Positions 2,390 to 20,610 of a DNA stretch of 64,000 bases are shown here, piece by piece (positions within the stretch are counted from its first letter, which is position 1; each line of letters begins with the position of its first letter). A model generated the notes under the pieces. It saw only the letters and a list, made by a program, of their open reading frames with translations. It was not told the DNA's origin and ran no database searches. A program made the position numbers and the translations under genes. The DNA is from a virus, in IMG/VR virus record IMGVR_UViG_3300002462_000001. One strand, given 5' to 3'.

Positions 2390-2396
2390 GAATTTT

Positions 2397-3545: not shown

Positions 3546-3580
3546 CCCCATACGTCGTATTAATCGACAAGGCTTAAAGA

Positions 3581-4365: not shown

Positions 4366-4399
4366 AAGGTTTTATTAAAAATGTGCCGATGGCTTATCT

Positions 4400-4612: not shown

Positions 4613-4620
4613 CCGCTAAA

Positions 4621-4863: not shown

Positions 4864-4911
4864 GATTTTTAGTGAAAGTTAACTATGATAGTTATTTTAC
4901 CACACTACGAC

Positions 4912-5129
4912 GTGATACTCTTCAGGCTAAAGCCTGAAGCTTCTCTAAATTAGAGAATTATTCTCGCTTCATCAACTTTGCTACCCACATAATGGACATA
5001 GTCTTACTAAGTCTCCACGAATGTTGGTATCCCAACAACTGTTATTGTACCAAAGGTACTTTAACAATAAAAACCAAAATCGCACCTTATATCCTACGCC
5101 CTAAAGGGCGAGGGTTTACGGTGCTTTTG
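4912..5129 (-). mobile_element. Non-autonomous IS200/IS605 (IS1341-like) mini-element: left end + reRNA scaffold + right end, no ORF
   Basis: Left end CAAAAGCACCGTAAA..CGCCCTTTAGGGCG..GATATAAGGTGCG shared with the tnpB element at ~30228-30276; scaffold-like GGAGACTTAGTAAGAC..GATGAAGCGAGAA; right-end hairpin CTTCAGGC-TTTA-GCCTGAAG ending TATCAC. Confidence 0.8.
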
Positions 5130-5138
5130 CTCATTTTC

Positions 5139-5693
5139 TTAAAAAACAACTTCAGCACAAAGAGGAAACATCAGGGCAATAATCAGTAAAATAACCGTAA
5201 CAATGATTCCTACTATGTTGACGAATCTGGCTGCCTTTTTGTTCGTAAAACTTAACAACAGTGAAGTTATCACATATAGCGGCGCCACAATAACCGCCGT
5301 CACAAACACCCAAGACAGATTACTACGGATGTCTGATGTAATCTCTGCAACAGACTCAACCGCACCTAACCCAAGCAACATTAAAACCATAGCAACAGGA
5401 AATCCAATAAGAGACCTCATCAGCACTTTTGTGACCTTACTCCAACCGGCTCTCTCAGAAATAGGTCTTTCTGTGTGCCCGGCTGTAACCCAACCGTAAC
5501 ACCAAACAACCACAGCAATCAAACCAACGCCTACAATTAGCGCTGATGCCGAAATCAATAAAGGACCATCGCCAGTGATCACCGCCAAAGGAAACACCAC
5601 TGCTACCGTAAATAACAAAGTACCATAACCAATACAGGCAAACAATTCACGGCACAACCACACAATACTCCACGGCTTTATTTTACCGTCCAT
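5139..5693 (-). CDS. Polytopic membrane protein
   Basis: Several hydrophobic segments; sigma70 promoter and SD upstream. Confidence 0.75.
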   Translation of the reverse strand: MDGKIKPWSIVWLCRELFACIGYGTLLFTVAVVFPLAVITGDGPLLISASALIVGVGLIAVVVWCYGWVTAGHTERPISERAGWSKVTKVLMRSLIGFPVAMVLMLLGLGAVESVAEITSDIRSNLSWVFVTAVIVAPLYVITSLLLSFTNKKAARFVNIVGIIVTVILLIIALMFPLCAEVVF

Positions 5694-5789
5694 AATACAC
5701 CCCCATCAGATAGGAACAGAACAATTTCCGTTCACTTTTATGTACCGCAAATCACCGTTAAATTTAACACCTGACTTGAAGGGTGTCAA
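5691..5789 (-). promoter_or_regulatory. Divergent 4th copy of the sigma70 + GGA-hairpin leader
   Basis: TTGACA(5784-5789)-17-TAAATT(5761-5766); shared TTTGCGGTA; hairpin GAAC-GGAAATT-GTTC (5719-5733). Confidence 0.65.
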
Positions 5790-6038
5790 TCACGTCTTGG
5801 ACGAACACTCCAATTTATAGACAAGCGCGTAATCACCAAGAGTAGCCCATCTCTTATGCGTAAGATCCTTATCCGGCAACCAGTCGCAGTAGACATAAAT
5901 GACCGGTTTGTTTCGTAACTCACCCACCTCCGTACGTACAAACCAATCAAAACCCAGCACATCAACTAACTCTTCAAATATCAGAGCTACACGCTGCGGA
6001 CTAACACCTGTCTTTCCTCTCTTTTTTTCCTTCTTCAC
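5790..6038 (-). CDS. Hypothetical protein
   Basis: ORF with upstream GGTATAAT (6070-6077). Confidence 0.55.
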   Translation of the reverse strand: MKKEKKRGKTGVSPQRVALIFEELVDVLGFDWFVRTEVGELRNKPVIYVYCDWLPDKDLTHKRWATLGDYALVYKLECSSKT

Positions 6039-6089
6039 TGTCCACCTTTTGGGCTAAAGTTTTGAAACCATTATACCGAAAAGCACTCA

Positions 6090-6578
6090 ATGGACGAAAA
6101 ATTTATTTTGAACGTTTTGGAGCAAATTCCAACAGGAAAAGAGGTCTCTCTTGAAGATTTGAACATCGAAGGTCTGACATCAAAAAACCTTTACGAACTG
6201 CACCAGGCCGGACTCCTAACATATAGATTTGAGTACCATCACTGCACAACTGCCGATGGCCTGAAAATGAGCGCAGAAGTCTATCGCCGAAACGTCACCG
6301 GTACCAGATGGATTCTGGATTGCAAATTGCAGATGTCTATGGCAGGGTTGACGGATCAGATTGTGCGCCTAACTCGCACTCTAGTCGGGCTAACCTGGCG
6401 TCTAACTGTTCTAACTGTAGCAATACTGATTCTAACAGTACTATCTCTGGCTTTGGCTTATTACACGACCTATCGGGAAAAAGTAAACATACAAGAGCAT
6501 CATCTGAAGGCGCTAGCAGTATCCATAGCGACACACCCAAACACGCACCCATCAAACCTCCAGACAATCTGTCAATAA
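6090..6578 (+). CDS. Hypothetical protein, winged-helix-like N-terminus plus C-terminal TM helix
   Basis: Hydrophobic LTVLTVAILILTVLSLALAYY preceded by coiled coil. Confidence 0.55.
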   Translation: MDEKFILNVLEQIPTGKEVSLEDLNIEGLTSKNLYELHQAGLLTYRFEYHHCTTADGLKMSAEVYRRNVTGTRWILDCKLQMSMAGLTDQIVRLTRTLVGLTWRLTVLTVAILILTVLSLALAYYTTYREKVNIQEHHLKALAVSIATHPNTHPSNLQTICQ

Positions 6579-6633
6579 AATATGACGGCTTATCATATGC
6601 AGTCGAATCCTTACGTTTAAAAAATTTAAACAT
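6337..6633 (-). CDS. Possible small membrane/coiled-coil protein, antisense-overlapping 6090-6578
   Basis: ATG 5 nt after the stop of the endonuclease gene; TM-like and heptad segments. Confidence 0.4.
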   Translation of the reverse strand: MFKFFKRKDSTAYDKPSYFIDRLSGGLMGACLGVSLWILLAPSDDALVCLLFPDRSCNKPKPEIVLLESVLLQLEQLDARLARLECELGAQSDPSTLP

Positions 6634-6637
6634 ACTG

Positions 6638-8686
6638 CTACTTTTTCAAAAGCTCATAACTTATCTTACCCGCATCATAAATACGATACCAACCAAGACA
6701 CTCAGTCATCTCCTTCTCAGTCCAATCTCTGGACTCAGGAGGTAAAAACTCTCCAAAATTTTGACGAATTTTTTTCTTTGTAAAATTAAAACGGTAGTAT
6801 CTACGACCAGTATCAAATCCGACGTGAACCATATCTGTCCAATACCAATAAGCCGGTTCTACAATACCATATGATTGAAAGCCGTGATTTAAATAAATGT
6901 TATTATTTGGGTCAACCCATCTTAAATCAGCATAACTGTATAGCCTGTTGGTCATTGTCAATAAATAATTAACCAGCTTAGTAAACGCACCTGGAACAGA
7001 TTTTGTAATATCTGTTGCGAATCTACTAATCTCCAGCCCTTCTTGCGGACTACTTCCCTCCCTTGATAGCTGAGATTTATTAACAGTGACTACGGCCACT
7101 GGCATATCCGCATAAAACAAACCAATATGCCGCCCGCGACAAAACCCCTGAATATGATTTTTAACCATAAATCCACGAGCTATGCTCGGCTCAACCGACT
7201 GAACTGCACACTTACGCGCGCCAACTACAGGTTTATCCGCCGAACCGCCAAAAATATGGCTCAACTTGTCAACTACAATATCTCTAGTAAACTCCCATTC
7301 GTCTTCAAATATCTGTATTAAACGAATTCCTGATTCCTGACAAGCTAGATACTTATTGTAATGATAATTTTGCTCCAATCGCGGACTACTGTGCCAAAAT
7401 AGCCCGTTAAATTCAATTGCTAATTTTTGTTCAGGATAATACAGATCTAATTCATGACCTTTTACAGCGTTTTTTATATTAGTATAATCTGTCGGAAAAA
7501 GAGAGCATAACTCTATTTCAGGTTGCGAACGAAAACGCTCAACATATTTATAAAAGTCTAACCTTTTGAGTAAAGCGCAAACATACGCATGTGAGTAATT
7601 AAGCATTTTGGCTACCTCAAACGAAGTAGGCTTTCTCTGCATTATCTCTTGAACACTTATTAAAAATCGCTCAAATAAATCTTCATCCTTTGTAACCAAT
7701 ATCTGCTGTTGACTTTTATCCTGCTGTTCATGGTGCTCAGCCCCATAACGCTCTAAACATGTTTGCCGAGCCTTACGGTTTACTGCTGGATTTAGTAATG
7801 AGCAACCAGCACCATAACGCTGCAAATTTGTCTGACGCACCTTTGACTTGATCGCACAACTTTGTGCGACATTCTCAACACCGTACCTTTCCTTGTTTGT
7901 TTGCTTACTTTTATCCTGAAATTCTTTTACTTGAAAAGCATTTTCAACACAGTAACGATGTAAATTTGTCTGCTTTATTTTATCCCTAATATCCGCACAG
8001 CGCATCGGATGATCAACACCATATTTTTTTTGAAATGTTTGTTTGATTTTTCTCTTTATGTGCGCAGACTGACAAATATGATCAACGCCATATCGTATTT
8101 GACACGTTTTTTTAGTCTTCTCTTTCATAATATCGGTTTGACAAAAATTCTCCTTTCCGTATTTTTTTAAACACGTTTTCCTACGTCCGGTCACAACCAA
8201 TTCACCGTCTTTAACTATACCGTGATATTTAGCACTTTTGCATACTGTTGACACTGATGTGTTAAGTATTGTTGCTACCTCACTAACAGATAGATTCTGA
8301 CGAATATAAAGATCATAAAGGTACTCTTTTGAAATAGCCTGGTAAAGTATTTCTTTTTTAATGTTGCGATATTCAAGCGCTCGCTGCACTACACAAGACG
8401 AAACACCCAATCGCTCTGCGATCTGCGCCTGCGATAAGTTTTCAGTAATATACAGATCATAGAGGTAATCCCTAGGTATTGTTTTATAAATAGCTGTATC
8501 CTTCTTCGAAATACCATGATAACAAAGAGCGGTCCTTAACACTTTACTTGAAATACCTAAATGCTTCAGGATTTGATTGCGTGGTAGACGTTGAGTTATG
8601 TACAGATCATACAAAAGATCTTTTGATACTGTCTTATACTTGGCCATAGCGTTTAACATACTGTGAAGTCTTTTTAAATTTTTCAA
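6638..8686 (-). CDS. Free-standing homing endonuclease, Hef/Vsr-like PD-(D/E)XK with repeated DNA-binding modules
   Basis: 3x YDLYI..LG.S..AL.YHGI HTH repeats, ~7x K.KQT..RYGV repeats, SQPEIEL..ELDLYYPEQKLAIEFNGLFWHS nuclease core, GNAT-like C-terminus. Confidence 0.8.
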   Translation of the reverse strand: MKNLKRLHSMLNAMAKYKTVSKDLLYDLYITQRLPRNQILKHLGISSKVLRTALCYHGISKKDTAIYKTIPRDYLYDLYITENLSQAQIAERLGVSSCVVQRALEYRNIKKEILYQAISKEYLYDLYIRQNLSVSEVATILNTSVSTVCKSAKYHGIVKDGELVVTGRRKTCLKKYGKENFCQTDIMKEKTKKTCQIRYGVDHICQSAHIKRKIKQTFQKKYGVDHPMRCADIRDKIKQTNLHRYCVENAFQVKEFQDKSKQTNKERYGVENVAQSCAIKSKVRQTNLQRYGAGCSLLNPAVNRKARQTCLERYGAEHHEQQDKSQQQILVTKDEDLFERFLISVQEIMQRKPTSFEVAKMLNYSHAYVCALLKRLDFYKYVERFRSQPEIELCSLFPTDYTNIKNAVKGHELDLYYPEQKLAIEFNGLFWHSSPRLEQNYHYNKYLACQESGIRLIQIFEDEWEFTRDIVVDKLSHIFGGSADKPVVGARKCAVQSVEPSIARGFMVKNHIQGFCRGRHIGLFYADMPVAVVTVNKSQLSREGSSPQEGLEISRFATDITKSVPGAFTKLVNYLLTMTNRLYSYADLRWVDPNNNIYLNHGFQSYGIVEPAYWYWTDMVHVGFDTGRRYYRFNFTKKKIRQNFGEFLPPESRDWTEKEMTECLGWYRIYDAGKISYELLKK

Positions 8687-8740: not shown

Positions 8741-11700
8741 TTATTTCTTTAAAATTTCAACCTCGTCTGACAAACTAACCTCGCCAGCCCTGTAAGCACG
8801 CTTCATATCCTCAACCGTCGCAAACACTTTCGCTCTACCTTTCTTCTTGCGAGTTCGCGACCCCTCGTAGAGACCTTGCTGCCAGTCCTCCAGAGCTGTA
8901 AACATCGGCTCCCTGTTCAACGGCGATAACAAATTTTGCGACGGAAGCATTAACCGCTTAGCCTCATCTACCGCCTCATCGCTGATTGGTACTTGAAAAT
9001 TAAGAGCGTCGCCGTCCGTGTCCATCGAGTACCCAGACGAAACATACTGATTCATATGCATAGCGTCCCCTTTTACCAACCTGGGCCATAGTGCCATAAT
9101 GCCGTATTTGTGTAAAACCGGACTACGATCTACGACTACGGGTCGTTCCTTTGTTGCCTGTAGCAACGCTTGTTTTGCACGCCTATCCTTACTATTGTAC
9201 ATGTCCTGCGCCTGCATCAATGGTACACCGCCGCGCACCAACTTACGGATAATAACCGGCTTGTAAATTTCATACGCCGAATTTATCGGAATGCCTACCT
9301 CATCCATATCAAGTTGCGGATTAATGGTAATAACGTTCCTGGCAACATTGTCCACACCGCCGCCCAGCAAACTTCGCTGCACCATTCCGTATTTGCTGCT
9401 CCCATCGCCGAATACATTTTTCAACAAACCGCTCACGCGCTTCTGTACCAACTTTGGATGAGTCGGATCCATTAACCCGGTAATCTGCTTGAAATAGTTA
9501 TACGACTGCAAATACTCCTCGCCAGCATCGCCAATCTGCCGCTCCAACTCCTTAACCGAATCGTTATGATCAATAAACTGCTTGTACAGGTAGTTCACAT
9601 CCGCAACAAGTGCCGTCTTGGAACCCGTCATCTCAGATACCGGCCGGAACTTCGGAGGAATAACAGGCACTCTGTCCAACATCCAATCCGCAGGTGTTAG
9701 CTTGTTGTCTTTAGCGGATTTGAGAAACTGCAGCCGTTTAATAGCTTCGTCGCGCTTAGTACCTCTTCCATCAGCAACAACAGCACGGGCACGCAATATC
9801 TCCTGATCTACGTTCACCGCTAAAAGCGCTTTCTGTATGGCCTGTGGCCCAGTACCGTGAACACCAATACTCTCACGACCAGCAATCACTGACTCCAACT
9901 TTGCTTGCGTAAGACCAAGAATACGCCGTGCAGGTTCCTCCATAACCGGATTTAGAACAGGCTGAGTAGGCTTAATATAACCCCACCGGTCGCCATACTC
10001 ACCAAAGATCTTCGGATCGAACAGCCCATTAGCTATGCCTTTTTTATCGCCTTCCCATTTAATGGTTTCACTATTTTTTACCTCACGATTACCGGCCAGT
10101 TCCTTAACGTCATCATTGGTAAGTGCCATCATTTTAAACTTACCCGCCTTCGGAACCACATGAATCCCTGAACCTTCCAAATGCGCCATGAACTTGTGGA
10201 ACATCTCAGGCTGTTCAGGCTCCGGTGGCGTATAACCTCGCATGAAACTGGCCCAAAAAAGATCATTTTTAGCCCCGCGTATCCTACGAGCGTCGGCAAG
10301 CACGTTATACGCACCGTGAGATACAAGAGCATTTGTGTGCATTAGCGCAACCCTCTTTGCACCATTTTCACCGCCAGATGCAGGTTGTCCATCTGCTGTA
10401 TACCGACCAAATGAACGCGAAGATTCTTTGCCCTCGGCACTATGATGCAATTTCTGGATGAACCCGTAGCCCCAACCTATTCCCTTACCATCAACGCCAG
10501 TAATTTGTTTACCGGTCTCTGGATCTGTAACAGCATCACGAATATTAATCCCGTGTTCCTTTGCCAATTTCATCACGTACTCAGCCGTATCTGGATTCTT
10601 CGGATCAAAAGACTCTATTTTTATAGGACGGCCTAACTTCTTCGCAATTCGACCAAGCACATGTTCATGGAGCATGGCATGGTTAACTCTTCCAATGTTG
10701 GATATTGGCGAAAAACAGATCATAGCCGGACCATCTGGAGTCATAGGCATCTGATCATCAGGCACTATCTCGTTTATAACGCCTTTGTTTCCGTATCTGT
10801 TCGAACATTTATCGCCGACGCGCATCGGCTGTAGCGACTTCACAATAACGTTAACTCCGTTCTTATCCGTATGTATTGCTGTAACTACTCCCGGATCCTC
10901 GTTATCCCACTCAAGCGCACTGTTCATCAGTGAATTAGCGCCCTTGCGGTGTATGCGGTCAACCGGTTTCGTGTTAACATCCGCCTTAAGAACAAGCGGA
11001 TCGCCTTGACTCACCTTTGTACCAACTTTGACAATACCGTTATCATCAATCGTCTCCAACTGATCCTTATCGTAAATACCTGGAAACGCACCAATGAACG
11101 TGTTCTTACCTTGCTTTATATTGTCAGTCCAATCTATGCGGTGCTGATACGCATGCTGACTCTTCATCCTGTCAGCAAACGATTGACTAATCACAATACC
11201 GTCCATCGTGTTAGAGCCGCGCCACGGCATAACAACCGCTCGAGCGTTCAACCCCTGCGCTAACGCACCTGTATCATCAGTAAAATTAGACTTAGCAAGA
11301 ACCTGACCCTTTGTTATACGCTGTCCAGGCTGCACTAATGGAGAGTGCGATACAACCGTCTTACGGTTCGTAGGACTATCCTTAATCATCGGATATGTCT
11401 TTTCACCGTCGGCCGTATCAACCACAATAGAATCATCCGTAACACGTTTAACAACACCATCCGCTTTAGAGTTCACCGTTGCAAATCTGCCCACACGGTC
11501 TTCATAAGACTCATCCTCAGTACCTGGTACTTTCGATTGAACAAGAGGTGCTTCGCCGCCTTCCAAAGGAAGCGACTGAGTAAGCATACGAGCCGCCATT
11601 GCTACACGCTGACCTTTAACACTCCCAATCATAGGTATCAGATTGGACAAAGCGTTATAAGCACCTTGCGCATTAGGCATTATGTAGTCAATCTGATCCC

Positions 11701-13147
11701 GCTTAATGCCCATTCGTGGCTGCCTGTCGCTGTCAAATGCCGCAATTCTAGGCGCATCGCTGTCCCACTCCGACTGAAGCGTAAGACGAGACTTGGCTAA
11801 CTCCACAGGATTCTTGTACTCCTGCTTACCTGTTTTAGCGTTGATTACCGGTACATACAAATCGCCAGTTGAACTCTTAAGAGCACTGCTGCTGATGTAC
11901 GTGTCAACACCGGCACGTAACGATTCAGGTGTCTGCAAAGGATCAATAAACCCAAACATCGTGTTGTTTACTTCCCTCGCTGAATCCGGAATTGCTGACA
12001 CATCGCCGATCGCACCGCTGCCCATTCGAGTAACGCTAAACAGCTTACTGTACATGTCATACGGGTTTATCTCTTCAGCAGGTGAAGCCAGACCGCTCTG
12101 AGTAATAACCGCATTAAGCTGCTTCGTAAGAAGTCCAGGAGGTATCTTACTGAGGTCAGGATTATTCTTAGAGAGAAAAGTTAATTTATTAAGAGCCTGC
12201 CTTCTGACCCTGCCGTCATCTAGCTTGAGACGCTCTGCAAATAAATCCTCAGGTCCCATAAACCGTTGAAACTGCATAGCGTCTCTGTTGTCGCTATCCA
12301 CCTCTCCTCTGGCCAGCCGCATCAATTTAGACGAAGCAGCAATAACATGCCGCTTGTCAAATACATCGTCGTCAATATCTAAATTCGTTCGGCTAACCTC
12401 ACGGGCAAACTTTATCGCCTTAGCCTGCTCCTGTATCCGCTGACGCATTATTTCATCGCTATCCTTGTCGCCAGGCCTATGATATTGCTTCCTGACAAAC
12501 CTGTCGTAAAGCTTCTTCATGTTCATATCCTTTGCCTGCGCTTTGTTTATGTCCAACACACGCTTTCCCCACGCAGCCTCTAACTCCTCGTCAGTAGCGC
12601 CCATCGCGTTGAGAAAGGTGTAAAGCGGGATGTGGTTCTTACTAATCTCCATGCTAAACTTACCAGTCTTCGGGTCAAACTGATAAGCGTGAGTAGGACC
12701 TTCATGCGAAGCCGCATTAACATTGGAAATGAACTCTCCGTTCTCCTTCATTCGAGTGTAAATACCATTCTTCAACCGTTGCTGGCTCTTTATATAGTAC
12801 ATCGTACCGTTATCCATAATACCGCCGTTTGGCAATACATACGGAACATGAGCCAAGAGTTTTTTGGAGCGTTGAATCGGCTTCCCAGTCTGCGTATCAG
12901 ACAGAGTCCATACACCATGCAACTTACGCGTTAAAGACTTCTGCTGAAGACGAGCCTGGTGTATGTCGTGAGCGTTATACTCCGGAGAATCGCCCCAACT
13001 CACGTCAGAAATACTCAAAGTATAACGGTTGTTCTGAGCCGGAGGTAAATTGCTCGCAGTGTCAAAGACCGACGAAAATACGGCTTCACGAAGAGCGTCA
13101 GTGTCGTCGAAAGCCCTAAGCTTTAATTGAGGAGGAGGTGTAGACAT
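8741..13147 (-). CDS. rpoBC: Fused RNA polymerase beta + beta' N-terminal half (catalytic subunit)
   Basis: beta motifs FGFIDPLQTPE, GDKCSNRYGNKGVI, FIQKLHH, PEMFHKFM; beta' motifs GLFDPKIFG, VPVIPPKFRP, DRSPVLHK, YSMDTDGD, MLPSQNLLSP. Confidence 0.96.
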   Translation of the reverse strand: MSTPPPQLKLRAFDDTDALREAVFSSVFDTASNLPPAQNNRYTLSISDVSWGDSPEYNAHDIHQARLQQKSLTRKLHGVWTLSDTQTGKPIQRSKKLLAHVPYVLPNGGIMDNGTMYYIKSQQRLKNGIYTRMKENGEFISNVNAASHEGPTHAYQFDPKTGKFSMEISKNHIPLYTFLNAMGATDEELEAAWGKRVLDINKAQAKDMNMKKLYDRFVRKQYHRPGDKDSDEIMRQRIQEQAKAIKFAREVSRTNLDIDDDVFDKRHVIAASSKLMRLARGEVDSDNRDAMQFQRFMGPEDLFAERLKLDDGRVRRQALNKLTFLSKNNPDLSKIPPGLLTKQLNAVITQSGLASPAEEINPYDMYSKLFSVTRMGSGAIGDVSAIPDSAREVNNTMFGFIDPLQTPESLRAGVDTYISSSALKSSTGDLYVPVINAKTGKQEYKNPVELAKSRLTLQSEWDSDAPRIAAFDSDRQPRMGIKRDQIDYIMPNAQGAYNALSNLIPMIGSVKGQRVAMAARMLTQSLPLEGGEAPLVQSKVPGTEDESYEDRVGRFATVNSKADGVVKRVTDDSIVVDTADGEKTYPMIKDSPTNRKTVVSHSPLVQPGQRITKGQVLAKSNFTDDTGALAQGLNARAVVMPWRGSNTMDGIVISQSFADRMKSQHAYQHRIDWTDNIKQGKNTFIGAFPGIYDKDQLETIDDNGIVKVGTKVSQGDPLVLKADVNTKPVDRIHRKGANSLMNSALEWDNEDPGVVTAIHTDKNGVNVIVKSLQPMRVGDKCSNRYGNKGVINEIVPDDQMPMTPDGPAMICFSPISNIGRVNHAMLHEHVLGRIAKKLGRPIKIESFDPKNPDTAEYVMKLAKEHGINIRDAVTDPETGKQITGVDGKGIGWGYGFIQKLHHSAEGKESSRSFGRYTADGQPASGGENGAKRVALMHTNALVSHGAYNVLADARRIRGAKNDLFWASFMRGYTPPEPEQPEMFHKFMAHLEGSGIHVVPKAGKFKMMALTNDDVKELAGNREVKNSETIKWEGDKKGIANGLFDPKIFGEYGDRWGYIKPTQPVLNPVMEEPARRILGLTQAKLESVIAGRESIGVHGTGPQAIQKALLAVNVDQEILRARAVVADGRGTKRDEAIKRLQFLKSAKDNKLTPADWMLDRVPVIPPKFRPVSEMTGSKTALVADVNYLYKQFIDHNDSVKELERQIGDAGEEYLQSYNYFKQITGLMDPTHPKLVQKRVSGLLKNVFGDGSSKYGMVQRSLLGGGVDNVARNVITINPQLDMDEVGIPINSAYEIYKPVIIRKLVRGGVPLMQAQDMYNSKDRRAKQALLQATKERPVVVDRSPVLHKYGIMALWPRLVKGDAMHMNQYVSSGYSMDTDGDALNFQVPISDEAVDEAKRLMLPSQNLLSPLNREPMFTALEDWQQGLYEGSRTRKKKGRAKVFATVEDMKRAYRAGEVSLSDEVEILKK

Positions 13148-13154
13148 ACCTACA

Positions 13155-13191
13155 ATTATAGCCCGAATCGGTCTAGCACCTGTGCTATAAT
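13155..13191. promoter_or_regulatory. Back-to-back -10 promoter pair, copy 2
   Basis: ATTATAGC-N21-GCTATAAT; ATGs 7 nt (13147 minus) and 6 nt (13198 plus) away; shares GAATCGGTCT with copy 1. Confidence 0.8.
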
Positions 13192-13197
13192 GAAATT

Positions 13198-14265
13198 ATG
13201 AGTTACAAATGTGGTGGTTTTGATCTAGAGTTTCTGTCAAAATGTGTTTTGAAAAATCCAAAGTACCCACCTGGATACGTGCCTGGTGCGGGTATTGCTA
13301 AACTAGCCGGTGGTGTAATTATTCCAGGTATTGGATTTGTGCGATTGAACCCTGATTGCAACGAACGTCTTAAGAAAGCGGGCTATGTTCCTGGTGCGGG
13401 TATTGCTAAATTGGTGGCTGATTCACGTAACAAACAGTTGGAAAAGCTCGGTTTTATGCCGCTTGCTTTACGCGCTGGCGCTAGTCTTAAGACGTTATTG
13501 CCAACTATAAAAAAGAAACTTTTCACCTATAGAGGTCCTCAATTTGTAAAATCTCCGTTGGGACAGGCTGCCTTAGCTGGCGGTCTTGGAGCTGGAACTT
13601 TGGGCGGTAGCCTTTTAGGTGTTGATTATTTAAATCATGGGCCGCCACTTAGAGATTTAGCTGGCAGGCGTGCGGCTAACCCAGATGAAAACAATGCACA
13701 CTGGAGAAATGGAAAACCAATGAATATTAGTGGTTTAACGCCGCAACAGCGTGAAGATGCATATACATTGTTTGACGCGATGCATAACAACAAAAGAACA
13801 CAGCATCTGAGTTACCCGTCTATCCGCGTTAACCCAAAGCTACAGAATCCGCAATATAGCCCGTTATGGAACACAATACAGTTGCCCACAAAATCAAGTC
13901 TAAATGAGATGTTTCACGAAGGGGCGCACCGTACTACATACGGTACTACTTTTTGGAATCCGGTGAATAATATTCGGTTTCGTGGGCCAGGACTAAGGTT
14001 TTCGCAAAACTACCTACAGAATGAGTCTCGCACAGCAAGAGACCATTTCGAACTAAATCAACACGCACCAAAAAATCGCCAACTTACAGAAAAAGAGATT
14101 GCTGATTTTTGGAGAAATAATCTTACAGGGCATGCCAGTAACTACAAAGACTACAATCAGGTATGGAAAAAGTTCATGCGTAATCATAAACCATTCACGC
14201 AGTCAGATATGAATTCGAGCTTATGGTCACTACCGCAAACACTACCTGAGGGCTTTAATAATTAA
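13198..14265 (+). CDS. Cassette cargo protein B, putative zincin metallopeptidase domain
   Basis: Leader LKNPKYPPGYVPGAGIAKLA (partly duplicated), Gly-rich hydrophobic segment, NEMFHEGAH (HExxH) with downstream Glu (NESRT). Confidence 0.7.
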   Translation: MSYKCGGFDLEFLSKCVLKNPKYPPGYVPGAGIAKLAGGVIIPGIGFVRLNPDCNERLKKAGYVPGAGIAKLVADSRNKQLEKLGFMPLALRAGASLKTLLPTIKKKLFTYRGPQFVKSPLGQAALAGGLGAGTLGGSLLGVDYLNHGPPLRDLAGRRAANPDENNAHWRNGKPMNISGLTPQQREDAYTLFDAMHNNKRTQHLSYPSIRVNPKLQNPQYSPLWNTIQLPTKSSLNEMFHEGAHRTTYGTTFWNPVNNIRFRGPGLRFSQNYLQNESRTARDHFELNQHAPKNRQLTEKEIADFWRNNLTGHASNYKDYNQVWKKFMRNHKPFTQSDMNSSLWSLPQTLPEGFNN

Positions 14266-14289
14266 AAAAAAACCGCATTACTGTGCGGT
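14264..14289 (-). terminator. Intrinsic terminator between convergent genes
   Basis: ACCGCA-ttactg-TGCGGT stem preceded by an A run on + (U-tract on -). Confidence 0.7.
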
Positions 14290-14305
14290 AAATTCTTCTG
14301 CAGAA

Positions 14306-14542
14306 TTAGTTGCTACACTCTTCTAAATCTGTTTTCTGCGTAGCAATTTCTATCGATTCTGTACCTTCTTCAGGTTTAGTTGGTTCTTCCTGAAGCAATT
14401 TATGCATCACTTCCATACGTTCACGGTGTCCAGCGTTACGGGACTCCAAGAAACAACTGTGACTATAAGCCAAAACAGCTCCCAGAAGCACTAATGCAAT
14501 AAGCAGCTCAATTAACGTAAAACCGTAATTTGCTCTTTCCAT
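14306..14542 (-). CDS. Small prepilin-like protein (class III signal peptide)
   Basis: MERANYG|FTLIELLIALVLLG: G-1, F+1, E+5, hydrophobic helix. Confidence 0.75.
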   Translation of the reverse strand: MERANYGFTLIELLIALVLLGAVLAYSHSCFLESRNAGHRERMEVMHKLLQEEPTKPEEGTESIEIATQKTDLEECSN

Positions 14543-14624
14543 AACTCACCTCCATTGGTTAAAAGTTGAAATTCCCTTCAACAATATCTACCGCAAATTT
14601 ACCTAAATTTTAGAGGTTTGTCAA
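14540..14624 (-). promoter_or_regulatory. Sigma70 promoter + GGA stem-loop + SD module, copy 2
   Basis: TTGACA(14619-24)-17-TAAATT(14596-601); GTTGAA-GGGAAT-TTCAAC (14565-82); SD GGAGGTG. Confidence 0.85.
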
Positions 14625-14683
14625 GTCAACCACCCCTATAAACAGCCCCTCAAACACCCGCCAATGTCAAGCATGAGCTCCGC

Positions 14684-15007
14684 TCACTCTCCGCCACGCT
14701 CCCGACCTTCTGCAGCATCTTGTGCCCGCCGCTCATCGTAAGCCTTCTTGATTTTTAATTTCTGCAATAGATCAAAACTCGATCCCTCTTTTTTGTGCCC
14801 GGACGTATCTTTATCCCTATGAATAATCGACAGCACCTTCTCAATATCCATTAACAACTTCTGATCAAGTTCAGCTCTCTCTCGTTGTTCGTAAACTTCA
14901 TTCGCAATTTTACGTATAAAGTTAGGCAGACCATCCACAATGTCGTTTACCTTTCCTTCGAGTTTCTCAAGGCGCTCCTCAACATACGTTTTTGTATTTC
15001 TTGGCAT
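14684..15007 (-). CDS. Hypothetical coiled-coil protein
   Basis: ORF; upstream TTGACT-16-TATACT promoter overlapped by a palindrome. Confidence 0.6.
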   Translation of the reverse strand: MPRNTKTYVEERLEKLEGKVNDIVDGLPNFIRKIANEVYEQRERAELDQKLLMDIEKVLSIIHRDKDTSGHKKEGSSFDLLQKLKIKKAYDERRAQDAAEGRERGGE

Positions 15008-15071
15008 GATTTATTTCAGAGTTAAAGTTAAAATTAAGTATATTCAAGTTGACTACAAAGTCAACATAGCT

Positions 15072-15096
15072 AAAAGAAAGAGCAGCCAAAGCTGCT
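15072..15096 (-). terminator. Intrinsic terminator
   Basis: AGCAGC-TTTG-GCTGCT followed by CTTTCTTTT on minus. Confidence 0.7.
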
Positions 15097-15158
15097 GCCC
15101 GTAGCGTGCTTGACCCGTAGGTTCACGGGTGTCTTGTCAGAGACGGGCATTGGGTGTT

Positions 15159-15863
15159 TTATTGTGTATATTTGTTTCGCAGAAGTGCTTCGGAATCCTC
15201 CCACGACATTCCGAGTCCGTATAGCATATATGGCGATCTAAACCGGCAAACTGCTCGCTCATTCCATTTCTTTTGAGCTTCTTTAGCAGTGCGGATTTCG
15301 TATTCCTCTGATGTTTCAATGCGGAATTGTTGTCCATGGAAGGTGTTCCATAGATGTTGTTGGTGTTGCCAGTATTCTTGCTCTTCCCTGAGCAATTTGT
15401 CTGCTGTTCCTTCAATAATGAAGGTCTTATCCCGTTTCCATTCATTCCAGAACATTTGTTCCTGGACTGTTTCGTGGACATCTAAGAGATATATTATCTC
15501 TTCGTCAGTACAGCAGTCAAAATTCATTGACAATTCTTCCAGGGTTTCGGGATCGTCCCATCCCCTTGTCTGGATATAGTCCTCGACTATATCCGATGTT
15601 TGACCTGACCTTAAACCTCTACGGTCCAGGTCTTGGATCCAGGCATAGGCAAACATTATTGCTTGCCTTTTCATCTTTGGCGGTACGCTGTGTACCGCAT
15701 TGTGAAAATTGGACATAAATTCGTATGCCCAAATAGTAAGTTGTGTGTAGTTCGTCATATCTTTTCTTCCGTATAATGACCGCCCACGGGACAGAGCGTA
15801 TCGGAACCTCCCCGATATATTACCGTGCCAGTATAACCACTGGTTTGGGCAGAATTGCCTCAT
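15159..15863 (-). CDS. Hypothetical protein
   Basis: ORF track; true start may be the internal MTNYTQ. Confidence 0.55.
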   Translation of the reverse strand: MRQFCPNQWLYWHGNISGRFRYALSRGRSLYGRKDMTNYTQLTIWAYEFMSNFHNAVHSVPPKMKRQAIMFAYAWIQDLDRRGLRSGQTSDIVEDYIQTRGWDDPETLEELSMNFDCCTDEEIIYLLDVHETVQEQMFWNEWKRDKTFIIEGTADKLLREEQEYWQHQQHLWNTFHGQQFRIETSEEYEIRTAKEAQKKWNERAVCRFRSPYMLYGLGMSWEDSEALLRNKYTQ

Positions 15864-15930
15864 TCACCATAAGACCCTCACTGTGAGAATCTGACAAATC
15901 TGGTGATCCCACCATCTAGCGTTGTGCTAG

Positions 15931-16302
15931 CTAATTGCCGCTGATGTACGGACCGCCGCCTCCAGTATTCGGTACAAAGGTTGTACTCTCATACGGATGG
16001 CGCATGTTCGTTCCAGTTGGCTTGTCAGTTCCGTCAAACATAAGACCTCGCTCGTACTGCCTCTGACGCTCAGCACTGCCTACCCAAGGACTCTCTGTCA
16101 GTTTAGATCGGCCACCCTCGGTAAAATTGTGGAAAAGTGTTCTGTCTTCCAAAGACTCATCAGAGACGGTAACGCTGTAGGTGGACTCCGGCTCTTGCTG
16201 CTCAATCCAAATAAGACCTAAAACAACAAAATAGGCAAGTATCGAACCCACTAATAGGGCAAGCACCCGCTGATACAGCGGTGGTTGTGGTGTAGTTTTC
16301 AT
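15931..16302 (-). CDS. Membrane-anchored hypothetical protein
   Basis: N-terminal TM VLALLVGSILAYFVVLGLIWI. Confidence 0.6.
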   Translation of the reverse strand: MKTTPQPPLYQRVLALLVGSILAYFVVLGLIWIEQQEPESTYSVTVSDESLEDRTLFHNFTEGGRSKLTESPWVGSAERQRQYERGLMFDGTDKPTGTNMRHPYESTTFVPNTGGGGPYISGN

Positions 16303-16406
16303 GATACGTTCCTTTCAAATTGTTAAAACAGTAAGGAAAGTTCAAAACGATAATACTTTCCTCACTATTTCTTACCATAAAAAGAATGGTTTTTTAAGGC
16401 ACGCGC

Positions 16407-18416
16407 CTACAGCACCAGCGGAGCCTTCACAATAGGTTCAAAACTATCCCACTGCACCACCGGTGTTTCCGGTATGATGATTGCCGGATGTTTATATCTA
16501 GCAGCCGTAGATAAAAACTGCGTAAGAATCTGCTTATTCATCCACACACCATCCGACGGCGCATTGTACTTATCAGCGCCTTTGTATCTGGGACCATGAG
16601 AGTTAAGGAAAAACACATAGTCTTCGCCGCCGTCAAATACATACCCGCCAATCGAAGTTGAGTGATTCCACTTACCGGATAAAGTCGCTATACGCATACC
16701 GTTCTTACCGGCACATTTATCTGCAACCTTTGTTGTGTTACCGAGAAATAACGCAAGACCGGATTTACACACCTCAACCACTCTATCTACCATGTTATCC
16801 AAAGGCATAAAGCAAATACCGGACTGATGCTTTGCCGCCTCTTCATGGTAATCCATGTAGTCCTTCGGTACAGTTATGTTGTTCTCGCCGATAACGGACA
16901 TCGGGAAGTTGCCGATAACGTTTACTGCGTTGGAGACCGCCATTATTGAATTAGCAACTAAAACACCGTTCATAAAATAGCTATCAACACCCTCCGGAAC
17001 GATAGCGTAATTGTGCTCACTCCACTGTCGCTTATCGTCCGGCTCAGGATCAAGCACGGAGATCATATAAACTGGTTTTATACCTACAGGCTCAACTGAT
17101 ACAACTCTATGATTATTTTCAGCCAACTCTGACACAAAATTATCGTACGAACCAAAATTCTTGCATATGCGCTTTAATCTCGCAGCAAAACTATCAGTTT
17201 TTGACGACTTACCAGTTACTTTGGCAATAGCTGCTCTATACTTGCCTTCAGTAGAAATATCATAACCTAAATTTATTATTTTATACGCAGCATCCAATTG
17301 TTTTTGTTTAGATCGTAACAATCTATTTTGCCTATACGTCTCGGCAAAATCTGAATCAGTTGCTACGCGATGCCACATTTTTAAAACCGTGGAAGAACGT
17401 TTAGTACTACCTACATGACCTAAAAAATGCTCAGCTCTCGATACAATTTCTAAATTTTCCTCCAAGTTATTTAATCTATTCTCATCTTTATGATGTACTA
17501 CACCATCAGACAAATCAAAACCCATAACGTCTCCAAGCACTAATTGATGCATGTAGGCCTTACCTTTCTTTCTGTCATGCAATCCAACCCTGATATACCC
17601 GTCAGTATGTTTTGATGTTGACACCTGGAACAGACTCTGACCAACCTTTAAATTAACAGCATGAACAAATTCACCTGTTTTTAACATCATTGGATGATCG
17701 CACGAAAGCTCGAATACGCCTTTGTCTGTCGTTACCCGAACACACTCCTTCACGCCAGAATATGTGGCATACGCTTTTTTAGCCGCAACGCGCCCTAATC
17801 GCCTGGAATACGATAAAATAACAAACTCTTCTCCACTTAAAGCTAACTCGCCGGCTTTTTTAGCCCCAACTGAAGTATAAACCCGCTGATCAAACGTTAA
17901 ACACTGCCCGCCCTTATAACTCCCTTTCTTTGACCAGAGCCACGCAGCGGTAGGGTTGGCGGGGTTATATAGATGCGCCTGACCCAATGCAAGATTTATT
18001 AGCGTGGACATGTTGCTTGCGAATGCGGCCGAATGTCCTGAACACGTGGGACGACCCCCTTGCGAGAAAGCAAACTTATTACTCTTCTTAAACTGAATCG
18101 GCAAATGCGCTAACACATCCCAAGGAAGCCAACTATACCCCGCAGCATTAACACGAGCAAGTAATTCCTGCCTCTGTTTCAAGTATTTTTCAAACTCAGC
18201 ATCCCAAGCAAAGATCGGCATATCGCCGCCGCGCTCCCAGCCGGACATAGAGATTGTATCAGCACCCATAGACTCACAGAGCGCCTCGTCGTAGTCGTCG
18301 AACTCTACACACCCGTTAACGATGAGACCGTCCTCTATAAGATCATTCTGACTTCGGCGGCGAAGCGCCGCCTCGGACATCTCAATTTGCTGCCGCCGTC
18401 TTCTGAAAAGTGCCAT
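16407..18416 (-). CDS. Papain-like (C1-type) cysteine peptidase interrupted by an HNH intein
   Basis: SQGGRPTCSGHS (Gln/Cys), WNHSTSIGGY (His), FLNSHG (Asn). Confidence 0.8.
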   Translation of the reverse strand: MALFRRRRQQIEMSEAALRRRSQNDLIEDGLIVNGCVEFDDYDEALCESMGADTISMSGWERGGDMPIFAWDAEFEKYLKQRQELLARVNAAGYSWLPWDVLAHLPIQFKKSNKFAFSQGGRPTCSGHSAAFASNMSTLINLALGQAHLYNPANPTAAWLWSKKGSYKGGQCLTFDQRVYTSVGAKKAGELALSGEEFVILSYSRRLGRVAAKKAYATYSGVKECVRVTTDKGVFELSCDHPMMLKTGEFVHAVNLKVGQSLFQVSTSKHTDGYIRVGLHDRKKGKAYMHQLVLGDVMGFDLSDGVVHHKDENRLNNLEENLEIVSRAEHFLGHVGSTKRSSTVLKMWHRVATDSDFAETYRQNRLLRSKQKQLDAAYKIINLGYDISTEGKYRAAIAKVTGKSSKTDSFAARLKRICKNFGSYDNFVSELAENNHRVVSVEPVGIKPVYMISVLDPEPDDKRQWSEHNYAIVPEGVDSYFMNGVLVANSIMAVSNAVNVIGNFPMSVIGENNITVPKDYMDYHEEAAKHQSGICFMPLDNMVDRVVEVCKSGLALFLGNTTKVADKCAGKNGMRIATLSGKWNHSTSIGGYVFDGGEDYVFFLNSHGPRYKGADKYNAPSDGVWMNKQILTQFLSTAARYKHPAIIIPETPVVQWDSFEPIVKAPLVL
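16950..17903 (-). mobile_element. Intein (318 aa) with HNH endonuclease
   Basis: GGQ|CLTFDQRVYT...CDHPM...VHHKDENRLNNLEENL...NGVLVAN|S. Confidence 0.88.
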
Positions 18417-18524
18417 GGTTCGTGAAAGATTAGTGTGAGTTTCCTATATCTATTATAACCGACATAATCGACGGTCAAAAACCATAACTCAATATAAGAG
18501 CAAAAAGAGCCGATTAATTGAAAC

Positions 18525-18845
18525 ATGATGCAATTTAACGAGGAAATTATGCTGGCGATCTTTGACCATTTTCTCAATCATCCAGAAAATATATCCAAGA
18601 TTTTCAAACCAAACGCATACAGCCCACTAACAGTCGAACAGATAAACGATCTAGGCCCAAAACACTTGCAATGTGATCAAAATTTACTTTGGTGGCATAA
18701 ACTGCTTTTTGCAAACGAGTTCATACTGCGCCCAGAACTTGTACAAAATGCCACAAGCGGCTGGTTACGACTTAACGAACCTGCCGACTTTCTTAGTTAC
18801 AGAGGTCAACAAATGCTTCGAAGACTTAAAAAGATATACGAATAA
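18525..18845 (+). CDS. Hypothetical winged-helix-like protein
   Basis: ORF; LRLNEPADFL wing-like segment. Confidence 0.5.
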   Translation: MMQFNEEIMLAIFDHFLNHPENISKIFKPNAYSPLTVEQINDLGPKHLQCDQNLLWWHKLLFANEFILRPELVQNATSGWLRLNEPADFLSYRGQQMLRRLKKIYE

Positions 18846-19223
18846 AAATAGGTATGGATGATATAGCGCGAACTCATCCCAACCACACAAATCACCCGGT
18901 AAAACACCAGAACTACGGCCGCGATCTTCAGGTATACTTTTTGACCGCTCAGCAAGATGTTTCTGCACATCCAAAAGGTATTTTGCGTCTAAACACCTTG
19001 CAATCAGGTATCTGTAACATAAATAATAAATTATGGGATGCCTGAAACGAAACGCATACATATACCCCACGAAATCGTTAACATACCGCCAATAATAAAA
19101 CTCGAAGTCAATCAGCCCTTCTTCTTTTGCTCGATTCTCCGGTAACCTGTCAGGCTCAACGAATAAATACATGATAATTTCCGTGAAGTTTTCCAGCATT
19201 ATAGCACAAGTCGACGAAAACAT
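18765..19223 (-). CDS. Hypothetical protein
   Basis: ORF downstream of the minus arm of promoter copy 3; true start likely internal. Confidence 0.5.
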   Translation of the reverse strand: MFSSTCAIMLENFTEIIMYLFVEPDRLPENRAKEEGLIDFEFYYWRYVNDFVGYMYAFRFRHPIIYYLCYRYLIARCLDAKYLLDVQKHLAERSKSIPEDRGRSSGVLPGDLCGWDEFALYHPYLFLFVYLFKSSKHLLTSVTKKVGRFVKS

Positions 19224-19233
19224 AAGTTATAAT
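19198..19233. promoter_or_regulatory. Back-to-back -10 promoter pair, copy 3
   Basis: ATTATAGC-N20-GTTATAAT, then TGAGATT-ATG identical to copy 1. Confidence 0.75.
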
Positions 19234-19240
19234 TGAGATT

Positions 19241-20317
19241 ATGACAATGAAAATTGAATACAGCGGTTTTGGTACAATACCTCTGACAAGCTGGATTTTG
19301 AAAAATCCAAAGTACCCACCGGGATATGTGCCTGGCGCCGGACTTGCAAAGATGGCAGCTGACGCTAAATTAGCGCAGTTTAAGCGTGACTATCCTGGTC
19401 TGGCAGCAATGTTCGACGACAGTGAAAAAATGTACGATAGTGAACCAAAACTCTTTAAATCCGCAGCGTACAAACGTCACGCGCACAGATGTAAAACCGG
19501 TCTACGGTTCAAGTCAGCGTCAGGAGACAGCGCGGATCTTGCTTACGCTGCGACACCCGGCGGCGCAGGAGCAAACGCTGCAACACTAATAGATGCAACG
19601 AGTAAAATTGTTCCACCGTTACCTGACCCGAGTACGACCCATCCTGACACATCTATTGCAAAGGCGACAGCACTTAACACACTAGCAACCGGTAAGCAAC
19701 TGCCCGCGAACACACCACATAACATACGCCAAGATATCGAAAATGCAAAAGATACGCTCACAGTCAACCAATTCAATAATGATTTTCTTGGACCAGCGGC
19801 GCACGTTAAAAACACTGATATCCATAGAAACACACAAATGGCAGCATTTACAGCCGCAACAGTTCCGTCTGCTGCAAGCGGGCTAGCTAAACATCCGATG
19901 ATTGCCCCTGTATTTAAGCCGTTTCAAAATCGGATACCGTCAACACTGTTAAATGCGGGAAAATCCGTTGGACTACGATTTATTCCGGGCGTAGGCTGGG
20001 TAACACTTGGAGCAGAAGCAGGAAGTTACATGTTAGATCGAGCAGATAACCATCGATTTAACCAAAACCCAGGACTCTACACCTGGCACAACTACTCTCC
20101 AGAGCGAACATGGTACCAATACTTTACTGCGTCTACAACATCAGATAAGATGCGCACCTGGGTCAACCTGCAACCGGAAGAAACTAAACAACGGATACTA
20201 AATGACCAGCAAAAAAAGCTCGAACAACAGGAGCAACGTAAAAACCGCTCATGGGGACAGACACTTAATGATTCTATGGAAGCATACGGTAACAGTCTCA
20301 GATATCAAAGCCGATAA
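19241..20317 (+). CDS. Cassette cargo protein C
   Basis: Leader LKNPKYPPGYVPGAGLAKMAAD; Ala/Gly-rich, FIPGVGWVTLGA hydrophobic hairpin. Confidence 0.75.
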   Translation: MTMKIEYSGFGTIPLTSWILKNPKYPPGYVPGAGLAKMAADAKLAQFKRDYPGLAAMFDDSEKMYDSEPKLFKSAAYKRHAHRCKTGLRFKSASGDSADLAYAATPGGAGANAATLIDATSKIVPPLPDPSTTHPDTSIAKATALNTLATGKQLPANTPHNIRQDIENAKDTLTVNQFNNDFLGPAAHVKNTDIHRNTQMAAFTAATVPSAASGLAKHPMIAPVFKPFQNRIPSTLLNAGKSVGLRFIPGVGWVTLGAEAGSYMLDRADNHRFNQNPGLYTWHNYSPERTWYQYFTASTTSDKMRTWVNLQPEETKQRILNDQQKKLEQQEQRKNRSWGQTLNDSMEAYGNSLRYQSR

Positions 20318-20366: not shown

Positions 20367-20528
20367 CTAAAGCTTCCCCCACCAATCAAAAAAGATACAC
20401 ATCGCCGTCCAAGTTAAAAGCCCCAGTAAAAACAGCACCCACAAAGCATCAAACGCGGGCTGCCAAGTAGGTTCGGAATCACGCCGACGCTCGGCCTCAC
20501 CCGCCTGTTCTCCAATTTCTTTTTCCAT
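20367..20528 (-). CDS. 53 aa single-pass membrane protein (missed by ORF track)
   Basis: Hand translation MEKEIGEQAGEAERRRDSEPTWQPAFDALWVLFLLGLLTWTAMCIFFDWWGKL*; SD GGAGGTG as in copy 2. Confidence 0.75.
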   Translation of the reverse strand: MEKEIGEQAGEAERRRDSEPTWQPAFDALWVLFLLGLLTWTAMCIFFDWWGKL

Positions 20529-20610
20529 AACTCACCTCCATTGATTAAAAGTTGAAATTCCCTTCAACAATATCTACCGTAAATCTACCTAAATTTTATC
20601 GACTTGTCAA
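20526..20610 (-). promoter_or_regulatory. Sigma70 promoter + GGA stem-loop + SD module, copy 3
   Basis: TTGACA(20605-10)-17-TAGATT(20582-87); GTTGAA-GGGAAT-TTCAAC (20551-68). Confidence 0.85.

Follow-up and report, generated by a model that had tools for sequence, protein, structure and literature searches.

A modular N-terminal leader on otherwise dissimilar phage proteins, a candidate capsid-targeting and cleavage signal

The DNA analysed here is a 64,000-nucleotide stretch (the window) of the IMG/VR virus record IMGVR_UViG_3300002462_000001, from a phage represented by metagenome contigs alone. The window lies within the European Nucleotide Archive (ENA) contig k141_2622399 (186,885 bp), in which the record position is the window position plus 107,674; we examined 162,798 bp of the contig (87%), with record positions 1–6675, 89585–101574 and 181464–186885 lying outside this coverage. 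Our subject is a short N-terminal leader shared by two of its genes, B (P0001; 355 aa; 13198–14265, plus strand) and C (P0002; 358 aa; 19241–20317, plus strand). The cargo that follows the leader in B is zincin-like, with HEGAH at residues 240–244 (13915–13929) and a candidate third ligand in ELNQH (14050–14064). That of C is an orphan without HExxH, and has a Gly-rich hydrophobic stretch at residues 247–265 (19979–20035) and K-S-A-S at residues 91–94. Gene A (P0003; 356 aa; 2475–3545, plus strand) carries HELPH (3060–3074) and ELDAN (3219–3233) and begins MKLRFGKFAADKK (2475–2513), with K-F-A-A at residues 7–10; the YVPGxG core of the leader is absent from it. An 80-aa open reading frame (ORF) at 4621–4863 (minus strand) starts MKLSFNSKSSPVKFAQ and holds a degenerate leader, MKLSFNSKSSPVKFAQIPAAG, comparable to the start of the leader protein P0004, KKLAFNSKASGLPGYIPGAG, which bridges the start of this ORF and the YVPGAG leader. 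A sequence-only reading of the window had related the starts of A and of the 80-aa ORF to the leader and had proposed that the leader is a packaging and cleavage tag through which arbitrary effectors are loaded into the phage head and injected; the sequence details on which it drew are all present.

B and C share an exact repeat of 25 bp (13247–13271 = 19296–19320), for which the chance expectation in 64 kb is about 2e-6 pairs, and a wider repeat of 97 nt (13216–13312 and 19265–19361) at 74% identity. The protein block common to them is LKNPKYPPGYVPGAG(I/L)AK(L/M)A. In B it reads LKNPKYPPG-YVPGAGIAKLA (residues 18–37; 13249–13308, plus strand) and ends K-L-A-G, and in C it reads LKNPKYPPG-YVPGAGLAKMA (residues 20–39; 19298–19357, plus strand). 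A partial second copy in B, GYVPGAGIAKLVAD (residues 62–75; 13381–13422, plus strand), repeats GYVPGAGIAKL. Across the family the core has the consensus Y-[VI]-P-G-x-G-[IL]-x-K-[LMI]-A and occurs in one to four copies per protein. BLASTP confines the alignment of B and C to residues 1–38 (58% identity, E 3e-11), beyond which B has its HEGAH and C its Gly-rich hydrophobic stretch; full-length homology of the two, which the sequence-only reading had named as the sign of simple paralogy, was not found in this comparison.

The core is under purifying selection at the protein level. The proportions of synonymous (pS) and nonsynonymous (pN) differences are 0.53 and 0.07 between B and C over a 21-codon core, 0.42 and 0.09 between B and P0004 over 53 codons, and 0.58 and 0.04 between the two copies in B; over an 11-codon core pS ranges from 0.4 to 0.8. 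Such strong divergence of synonymous sites while the peptide is held implies a function, and means that the conservation is not due to an RNA or DNA element. We therefore rejected conservation of the 5′ coding region at the RNA or DNA level, for instance for leaderless translation, since synonymous sites vary freely. The core strings VPGAG, IPGIG, VPGLG and VPGFG, each with a following A/K-rich stretch, are seen in B, C, P0004 and P0010, and resemble elastin-like VPGxG turns. This likeness probably reflects beta-turn or disordered structure rather than homology.

Within the contig sequence examined, the YVPGxG core is found solely in B (two copies), C (one), P0004 (two) and P0010 (four, two of them internal), the last two proteins being encoded on the same contig beyond the window. 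A profile search with the leader, as the sequence-only reading had proposed, found just seven proteins among 1.84 billion. B, C, P0004, P0007 and P0008 are true relatives, all belonging to this phage group, and the other two matches are weak. One of these is P0010 (E 7e-4), which a repeated core motif and BLAST similarity connect with the family; the other, a repetitive ORF (P0009), was judged spurious. P0005 was found by a separate homology search; the contigs that carry it, P0007 and P0008 are related to the present one and derive either from the same samples or from Joint Genome Institute (JGI) metagenomes. Related contigs include k141_1039105 and JGI24702J35022_10000029. A metagenome scan gave five loci, four of them true relatives; a G-patch-like ORF with KFPPGYVPGAG (L008) was judged a chance match. 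No relatives were found when IMG/VR viral contigs were scanned with the leader alignment, B and C had no tblastn match in 50,697 phage records, and cargo-only searches with C and P0004 returned only the query proteins themselves, with no homologues beyond their own cluster. Neither Pfam nor PHROGs has a match for any leader protein, nor for most proteins of the head module discussed below.

Upstream of the core, the leader is assembled from short modules. The first is MSYKCGGFDLEFL in B and P0005 and MKIEYSGFGTIP in C, P0004, P0007 and P0008-like proteins; the second is KNPKYPPG in B, C, P0005 and P0007 and KKLAFNSKASGLPG in P0004, the latter comparable to MKLSFNSKSS of the 80-aa ORF. Their order is first, second, then core, sometimes with an insert and a second core copy. 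In B and P0004 a weakly hydrophobic insert, GGVIIPGIGFV, follows the first core copy. A Sec, Tat or signal-arrest-release (SAR) signal, or a transmembrane role, was rejected for the family as a whole, as the insert is confined to B and P0004 and is missing from C, P0005, P0007 and P0008.

The pairing of leaders with cargoes is equally variable. The leader is all that B, C and P0004 have in common, a short N-terminal peptide shared by otherwise dissimilar proteins. B aligns with P0004 over residues 25–78 only (85% identity) and is a full-length homologue, leader included, of P0005 and P0007, which have one cargo (66% identity) behind different first modules. Residues 177–314 of the B cargo are similar to a leaderless 549-aa HEMGH protein, z549 (E 5e-9). 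The P0004 cargo matches the 299-aa z299 (E 1e-5), whose N-terminus differs from that of P0004 and matches residues 34–64 of C, the post-leader segment (E 4e-4). An internal copy in P0010 (YSGF...YxPGxG...YVPGFG, residues 243–279) resembles residues 9–47 of C, and the Gly-rich domain of P0010 matches a neighbouring 801-aa protein (E 2e-9). N-terminal modules and cargo domains are reassorted among some eight proteins. The leader–cargo relationships are mosaic, and the leader is therefore swappable.

The cargoes themselves are less arbitrary than had been supposed. HExxH is present in A (HELPH), B (HEGAH), P0004 (HEAGH), z299, z549, P0005, P0007, P0008 and a 404-aa protein of a related contig, and an acidic [ED]-x-x-[AQ]-x follows it by 26–70 residues in all six proteins checked (A, B, P0004, P0005, P0007 and P0008). 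The covered genome encodes seven HExxH proteins, where a rough estimate from typical residue frequencies, rather than a computation, would give about one by chance. A, B, P0004 and the three relatives are probably divergent zincins, since all carry both HExxH and the downstream acidic motif. The Atlas model of P0004 aligns to Zn_peptidase_2 (template modelling (TM) scores 0.53/0.57), B aligns weakly to M1, M48 and M78 catalytic domains (TM <0.5), and further Atlas leads for cargo, including LPD23/25 and Tox-MPTase4, have low scores. Viral Atlas clusters score 0.95–0.96 for the P0004 cargo and for the 481-aa head-module protein described below. C and P0010 have no HExxH and carry Gly-rich hydrophobic segments instead. 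The claim of unrelated cargoes thus stands for C and P0010; the majority of the others belong to the divergent HExxH proteins, and P0005 and P0007 are homologous to B over its full length. The 404-aa protein (HEVGH; L003 5806–7020, plus strand, contig k141_1039105) has an N-terminus of three tandem K-F-S-[AT] units, MMHLKFSASKPVKFSTRKPLKFSANK, which from its sequence looks like another type of leader that uses sites of this kind.

The phage is remote from cultured phages; the best match of its RNA polymerase (RNAP) beta/beta′ fusion is Gp206 of Salmonella phage Arash (OQ632216), at 28.6% identity. Head genes were matched by tblastn of all recovered ORFs against Arash. A 323-aa capsid protein (record 30993–31964) matches the Arash major capsid protein (E 4e-12), a 481-aa protease-like protein (record 34697–36142) matches Arash gp222 (E 7e-21), and an 856-aa protein matches gp218. 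The P0010 gene (record 36146–37771) immediately precedes the 481-aa gene and is four genes away from that of the capsid protein. The genes between the 481-aa gene and the capsid gene specify a very acidic, scaffold-like protein of 500 aa and proteins of 139 and 218 aa.

Every leader ends in K-φ-A-[S/G/A] (φ, hydrophobic; K-[LMI]-A-[S/G/A]). The motif K-x-A-S was defined post hoc, after the head-module proteins had been viewed, and was therefore tested by shuffles, by pattern enumeration and by comparison with Arash; the unbiased scans lessen the concern that this raises, though not entirely. K-φ-A-S occurs at 13 sites, compared to 3.8±2.0 in per-protein shuffles (maximum 9 in 500), an enrichment of 3–4 fold, and 12 of the 13 fall in the head region, record 28–59 kb, a stretch with 19% of the residues (binomial P 3e-8). 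It ranks first of 1726 x-φ-y-z patterns in that region (12 versus 0.92 expected, P 3e-10), where the top exact tetrapeptides, low-complexity strings set aside, are KTAS, KQAS and KLAS. For the generalised K-x-A-S, 30 of the 39 sites in the covered genome are in the head region. The 100 kb of Arash that were examined hold 18 such sites, ten of them in the head-module proteins gp220 (145213–146136, five sites), gp222 and gp223 (148209–148976, four sites).

Individual sites also sit where cleavage would be expected. K-hydrophobic-A-S is found at residues 21, 140 and 286 of the scaffold-like protein, at 10, 26 and 248 of P0010, and at 250, 293, 357 and 394 in the C-terminal half of the 481-aa protein, just past the residues conserved with gp222 (36–244). 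The capsid protein has KLAT at residues 23–26, ahead of its homology to the Arash capsid (from about residue 41). Two head proteins carry longer strings resembling the PGAGIAKLAS of the leader, YGAIAKYAS in the 481-aa protein and VPGIVTKLAS in the 139-aa protein. Because the motif tracks the head module in two phages that share only 23%–34% identity in these proteins, it would seem best explained as the recognition site of a maturation protease common to this phage and Arash. The beta subunit of the Arash RNAP, Gp206, begins MPKSAS.

With its terminal motif otherwise concentrated in head-assembly proteins, the leader is, on balance and with only modest confidence, probably a modular capsid-targeting and cleavage leader of the kind represented by the T4 capsid-targeting sequence (CTS), with a new sequence and a new cargo; packaging and cleavage are both predictions. 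The leader consists of the core Y-[VI]-P-G-x-G-[IL]-x and an end K-[LMFYI]-A-[S/G/A], preceded by the interchangeable modules given above. Docking onto the prohead core during its assembly would be the role of the YxPGxG part and the modules before it, and the K-x-A-S-type end would be recognised and cut by the prohead protease, for which the candidate is the 481-aa gp222 homologue encoded immediately downstream of P0010, or alternatively by a host Prp-like protease. Cleavage would free the mature cargo in the head, from which it would exit with the DNA. The set so delivered would be made up mostly of small HExxH zincin-like proteins (A, B, P0004, z299 and z549, with P0005, P0007, P0008 and the 404-aa protein in relatives), the other cargoes being the Gly-rich hydrophobic C, P0010 and the 801-aa protein.

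In T4, the ten N-terminal residues of IPIII are enough to bring it into the head. The CTS is processed as the head matures, and foreign proteins fused to it are packaged; within this ten-residue peptide, what specifies targeting can be separated from what specifies processing, and the repertoire of internal proteins is variable (PMC9026906). Like the CTS of IPI, IPII, IPIII and Alt, processed by gp21, the leader is a short N-terminal peptide common to dissimilar proteins, and a motif like that at its end, here a putative processing site, recurs in scaffold-, capsid- and protease-type proteins. It differs from the CTS in having no sequence similarity to it and in replacing L/I-x-E by K-x-A-S; neither the gp21 rule nor a T4 CTS-like sequence is found at the ends of the leader sequences. 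It is also longer (about 40–80 aa), modular and internally repeated, and occurs inside P0010 as well, its cargoes are mainly HExxH proteins, and the candidate protease is only weakly S77/S78/S80-like. The idea of a packaging and cleavage tag is supported in part and indirectly, in that the leader is modular, conserved as protein and ends in a head-concentrated motif; the T4 cleavage rule does not apply to it.

Divergent from B is the gene of the RNAP beta/beta′-N fusion (1468 aa; 8741–13147, minus strand; Pfam Rpb2_6, Rpb1_1 and Rpb1_2), and divergent from A is that of a second RNAP subunit (1043 aa in full; 2–2422, minus strand; Rpb1_5 with a LAGLIDADG intein), which is similar to Arash Gp216. 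An element of about 40 bp with two inverted TATAAT boxes, each 6–7 nt from an ATG, serves both pairs divergently. In the promoter-like region between B and the fusion gene (13148–13197), one TATAAT is separated by 6 nt from the ATG at which B starts, and a second, inverted one by 7 nt from that of the RNAP gene; the element between the second subunit gene and A lies at 2390–2474, and a degenerate copy precedes C (19196–19240, plus strand; TATAAT, 7 nt, ATG). The elements of A, B and C are of the extended −10 form TGnTATAAT. TATAAT, 5–8 nt from an ATG, is also found before the portal-like gene, another structural homologue, P0004, z299 and z295. Two TnpB/IS605-type genes (29044–30195, minus strand; L018 15193–16365; PHROG transposase, OrfB_IS605, Cas12f1-like_TNB) show the same TATAAT–ATG arrangement. 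Positions 2428–2488 hold three tandem ATTGAGATT-like strings, the first of which, after the TATAAT box, opens a three-codon mini-ORF, ATG AAT GCA TAG (2441–2452). Since the third string is codons 1–4 of A, the start of A seems to have been displaced through duplication of promoter-proximal sequence.

Mass spectrometry of Arash virion preparations gave the most spectra for RNAP beta (Gp206), and beta′, sigma and gp222 were also detected (PMC10585845). The Arash homologues thus rank with the most abundant proteins of these preparations, which by analogy makes a virion-borne RNAP plausible in the present phage. The shared promoters fit co-expression of A and B with virion components, and leave its timing unfixed.

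At their other end the leader genes are closed by a second repeated element of about 95 nt, combining a promoter with a 5′ untranslated region (TTGACA, a hairpin-like core, GGAGG, ATG). It occurs in seven copies in the covered genome, those outside the window being at record positions ~44769, 63218, 71640 and 102556. Five of the seven close a cassette in which a zincin or leader gene of about 300–360 aa faces a small, unrelated convergent gene (A, B, C, P0004 and z299). The element lies at 3810–3904 in cassette A, at 14530–14624 in cassette B and at 20516–20610 in cassette C, all on the minus strand, and drives genes of 80 aa (3581–3823), 78 aa (14306–14542) and 53 aa (20367–20528), respectively, likewise on the minus strand. 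Cassette size is constant, at ~1.3–1.36 kb, and the ends are conserved. The 78-aa gene downstream of B encodes a type IV prepilin N-terminal motif (Pfam N_methyl), and beside P0005, on a related contig, its position is taken by an unrelated 78-aa gene with the same promoter element.

T4-type promoter-early stem-loop (PeSL) cassettes flank hypervariable genes. The arrangement here would be comparable in that repeated regulatory elements, the TATAAT region at one end and the 95-nt element in its seven copies at the other, bracket variable genes and would offer sites for shuffling; it is unlike PeSL cassettes in that the conserved 5′ end reaches into coding sequence that is constrained as protein.

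Several observations weigh against a capsid-targeting leader. B, C and P0004 end in K-L-A-G, K-M-A-A or K-L-A-A, not in the canonical K-x-A-S, and KLAS is found only in the relatives P0005 and P0008. The Atlas leads of the 481-aa protein to the prohead proteases S78, S77 and S80 (score 0.89–0.90, TM 0.33–0.43) are leads only; it has no protease family match in Pfam, PHROGs or PDB sequences, the sole match being phrog_2774, of unknown function, and its D-H and S-M-G strings were read by eye. AlphaFold2 (AF2) models of B (from a five-sequence alignment) and of the P0004 cargo (from two sequences) reach a predicted local distance difference test (pLDDT) value of only ~31. The RNAP subunits have neither the leader nor K-φ-A-[SAGT], so that their packaging, if any, would be by another route, and the Arash authors themselves caution that abundant enzymes may travel along with the particles (PMC10585845). 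Finally, the neighbours of A, B and C are genes of transcription and replication, and the sigma-70-like −10 elements of the three could equally mean early expression.

This last point leads to an alternative in which the leader docks early-expressed effectors elsewhere, for instance on a hub protein of the host, on a phage machine or at the membrane, its likeness to the head motif being coincidental. The position of A, B and C among RNAP and replication genes, on the opposite strand and behind extended −10 promoter-like elements, would suit such a role, as would the weakly hydrophobic insert of B and P0004 and the small, strongly promoted convergent gene that accompanies each cargo gene in the cassettes. 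However, the insert is missing from C, P0005, P0007 and P0008, and P0010 and P0004 are encoded in the half of the genome that holds the structural genes. Promoters of this type also stand before the portal-like gene and other structural genes, and the leader end matches a motif enriched in the head module. We regard docking elsewhere as unlikely.

Nor does it seem likely, and perhaps it is a shade less so, that the leader is a propeptide or cleavage signal only, which holds the zincins in an inactive state or guides their processing by an enzyme of the phage or its host, for example a Prp-type F|A-S protease, with no capsid targeting. The Prp-type site, MLxx(D/N)LQ(F/L)F′A(S/H)KK, cut between F and A-S by a C108 cysteine protease, occurs in L27, in the capsid and scaffold proteins of 80alpha and in some phage proteins that are not homologous. 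The leader is like it as a conserved N-terminal peptide on non-homologous phage proteins with a hydrophobic residue before A-S, the MKLRFGKF-AADKK with which A begins resembles the MLKLNLQFF-ASKK of the L27 extension, and both the three K-F-S-[AT] units of the 404-aa zincin and the preponderance of HExxH cargoes would suit a propeptide. On the other hand, the NLQ-F/L-F part is absent, K at P2 is not a Prp feature, and the sites here are also internal and multiple; the leader proteins do not match the Prp substrate motif beyond its hydrophobic-A-S/A part, and there is no Prp family match on record for any gene in the loci examined. C and P0010, moreover, have the leader but no HExxH, and the motif clusters in proteins of the head module instead of being scattered over the genome.

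Plain paralogy, in which one family was duplicated and kept its N-terminus while the rest drifted, would require no transferable function at all. It would account for the HExxH and the lengths of 300–360 aa kept by A, B, P0004 and several others, for the constant cassette size with conserved ends, and for the full-length homology of B, P0005 and P0007. We consider it improbable, given that the relationships are mosaic and not tree-like (the P0004/z299, z299/C, B/z549 and P0005/P0007 pairings, and the internal leader copy in P0010) and that the peptide is held while synonymous sites of the core are heavily diverged. An N-terminal anchor for exchangeable enzymatic heads on the tail or baseplate, in the manner of tailspike adaptor domains, is very improbable: although phage fibres and spikes typically combine conserved N-termini with variable C-terminal domains and P0004 lies among large structural genes, the partners of the motif are head-module and not large tail-like proteins, B and C are outside the tail region, and the leader is short, Gly/Pro-rich and repeated, unlike a folded adaptor domain.

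Further genes of the window deserve mention. Between cassettes B and C lies a gene for a 669-aa protein split by a HINT/HNH intein (16407–18416, minus strand; Pfam HNH_3 and PT-HINT), whose extein looks Cys/His peptidase-like and makes it another candidate processing enzyme. A 123-aa membrane-anchored ORF between B and C (15931–16302, minus strand) has an SPW-x-GSAERQRQ stretch in common with P0010. At 3901–4365 (minus strand), a 154-aa protein starting MKRRDFLKATVLSVVGLS has the look of a twin-arginine signal, unusual for a phage gene here.

Two other groups of injected proteins invite comparison with a capsid-targeting leader. This phage, like phiKZ and SPN3US, is large and encodes a multisubunit RNAP of its own, which by the Arash analogy is probably carried in the virion, and as with their inner-body proteins several head-internal paralogue families would be processed by the prohead protease. 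The cleavage rule of phiKZ and SPN3US is S/A/G-x-E, unlike K-x-A-S; the RNAP here is a beta/beta′-N fusion with one more subunit, and the searches run detected no homology to phiKZ proteins. MuF polymorphic toxins and polyvalent proteins join a constant N-terminal head-incorporation part to variable effectors, including zincin-like metallopeptidases, that are delivered with the DNA. The leader is similar as a constant N-terminal part carrying variable C-terminal effectors, but is a short linear motif rather than a folded domain, on separate small proteins rather than a giant polyprotein, and no leader protein has a Pfam match to the MuF/SPP1 gp7 domain. As a principle this is known already, from the T4 CTS, the ejection proteins of phiKZ-type phages, the Prp motif and MuF toxins. 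New are the leader sequence, which joins an elastin-like VPGxG turn to K-x-A-S, its modular and repeated build, a zincin-dominated cargo in promoter-bounded cassettes, and the lineage.

Taken at its widest, the finding suggests a scenario that we put forward tentatively, as possible rather than probable. In it, a little-known lineage whose relatives include Arash would pack its capsid with seven or more small zincin metalloproteases, and with Gly-rich proteins active on membranes, by way of a plug-and-play VPGxG plus K-x-A-S leader, read by a prohead protease of previously undescribed specificity. Promoter-bounded cassettes would let modules and cargoes recombine freely, and together with a virion RNAP the protease cocktail would be injected to take over or disarm the host. 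Even if the leader proves not to be a capsid-targeting signal, the motif statistics mark a head-module signature that needs explanation. If it is one, it would be a second, sequence-independent example of the T4 capsid-targeting principle, in a distant and barely studied lineage, and K-x-A-S would be a new maturation-protease specificity, from which one could predict the proteins that Arash-like phages process and package. Such a tag, short and transferable, would be of use where foreign proteins are to be loaded into phage heads. The injected zincins would form a family of candidate host-takeover or anti-defence effectors, and their mosaic cassettes illustrate how the repertoire of injected proteins may diversify.

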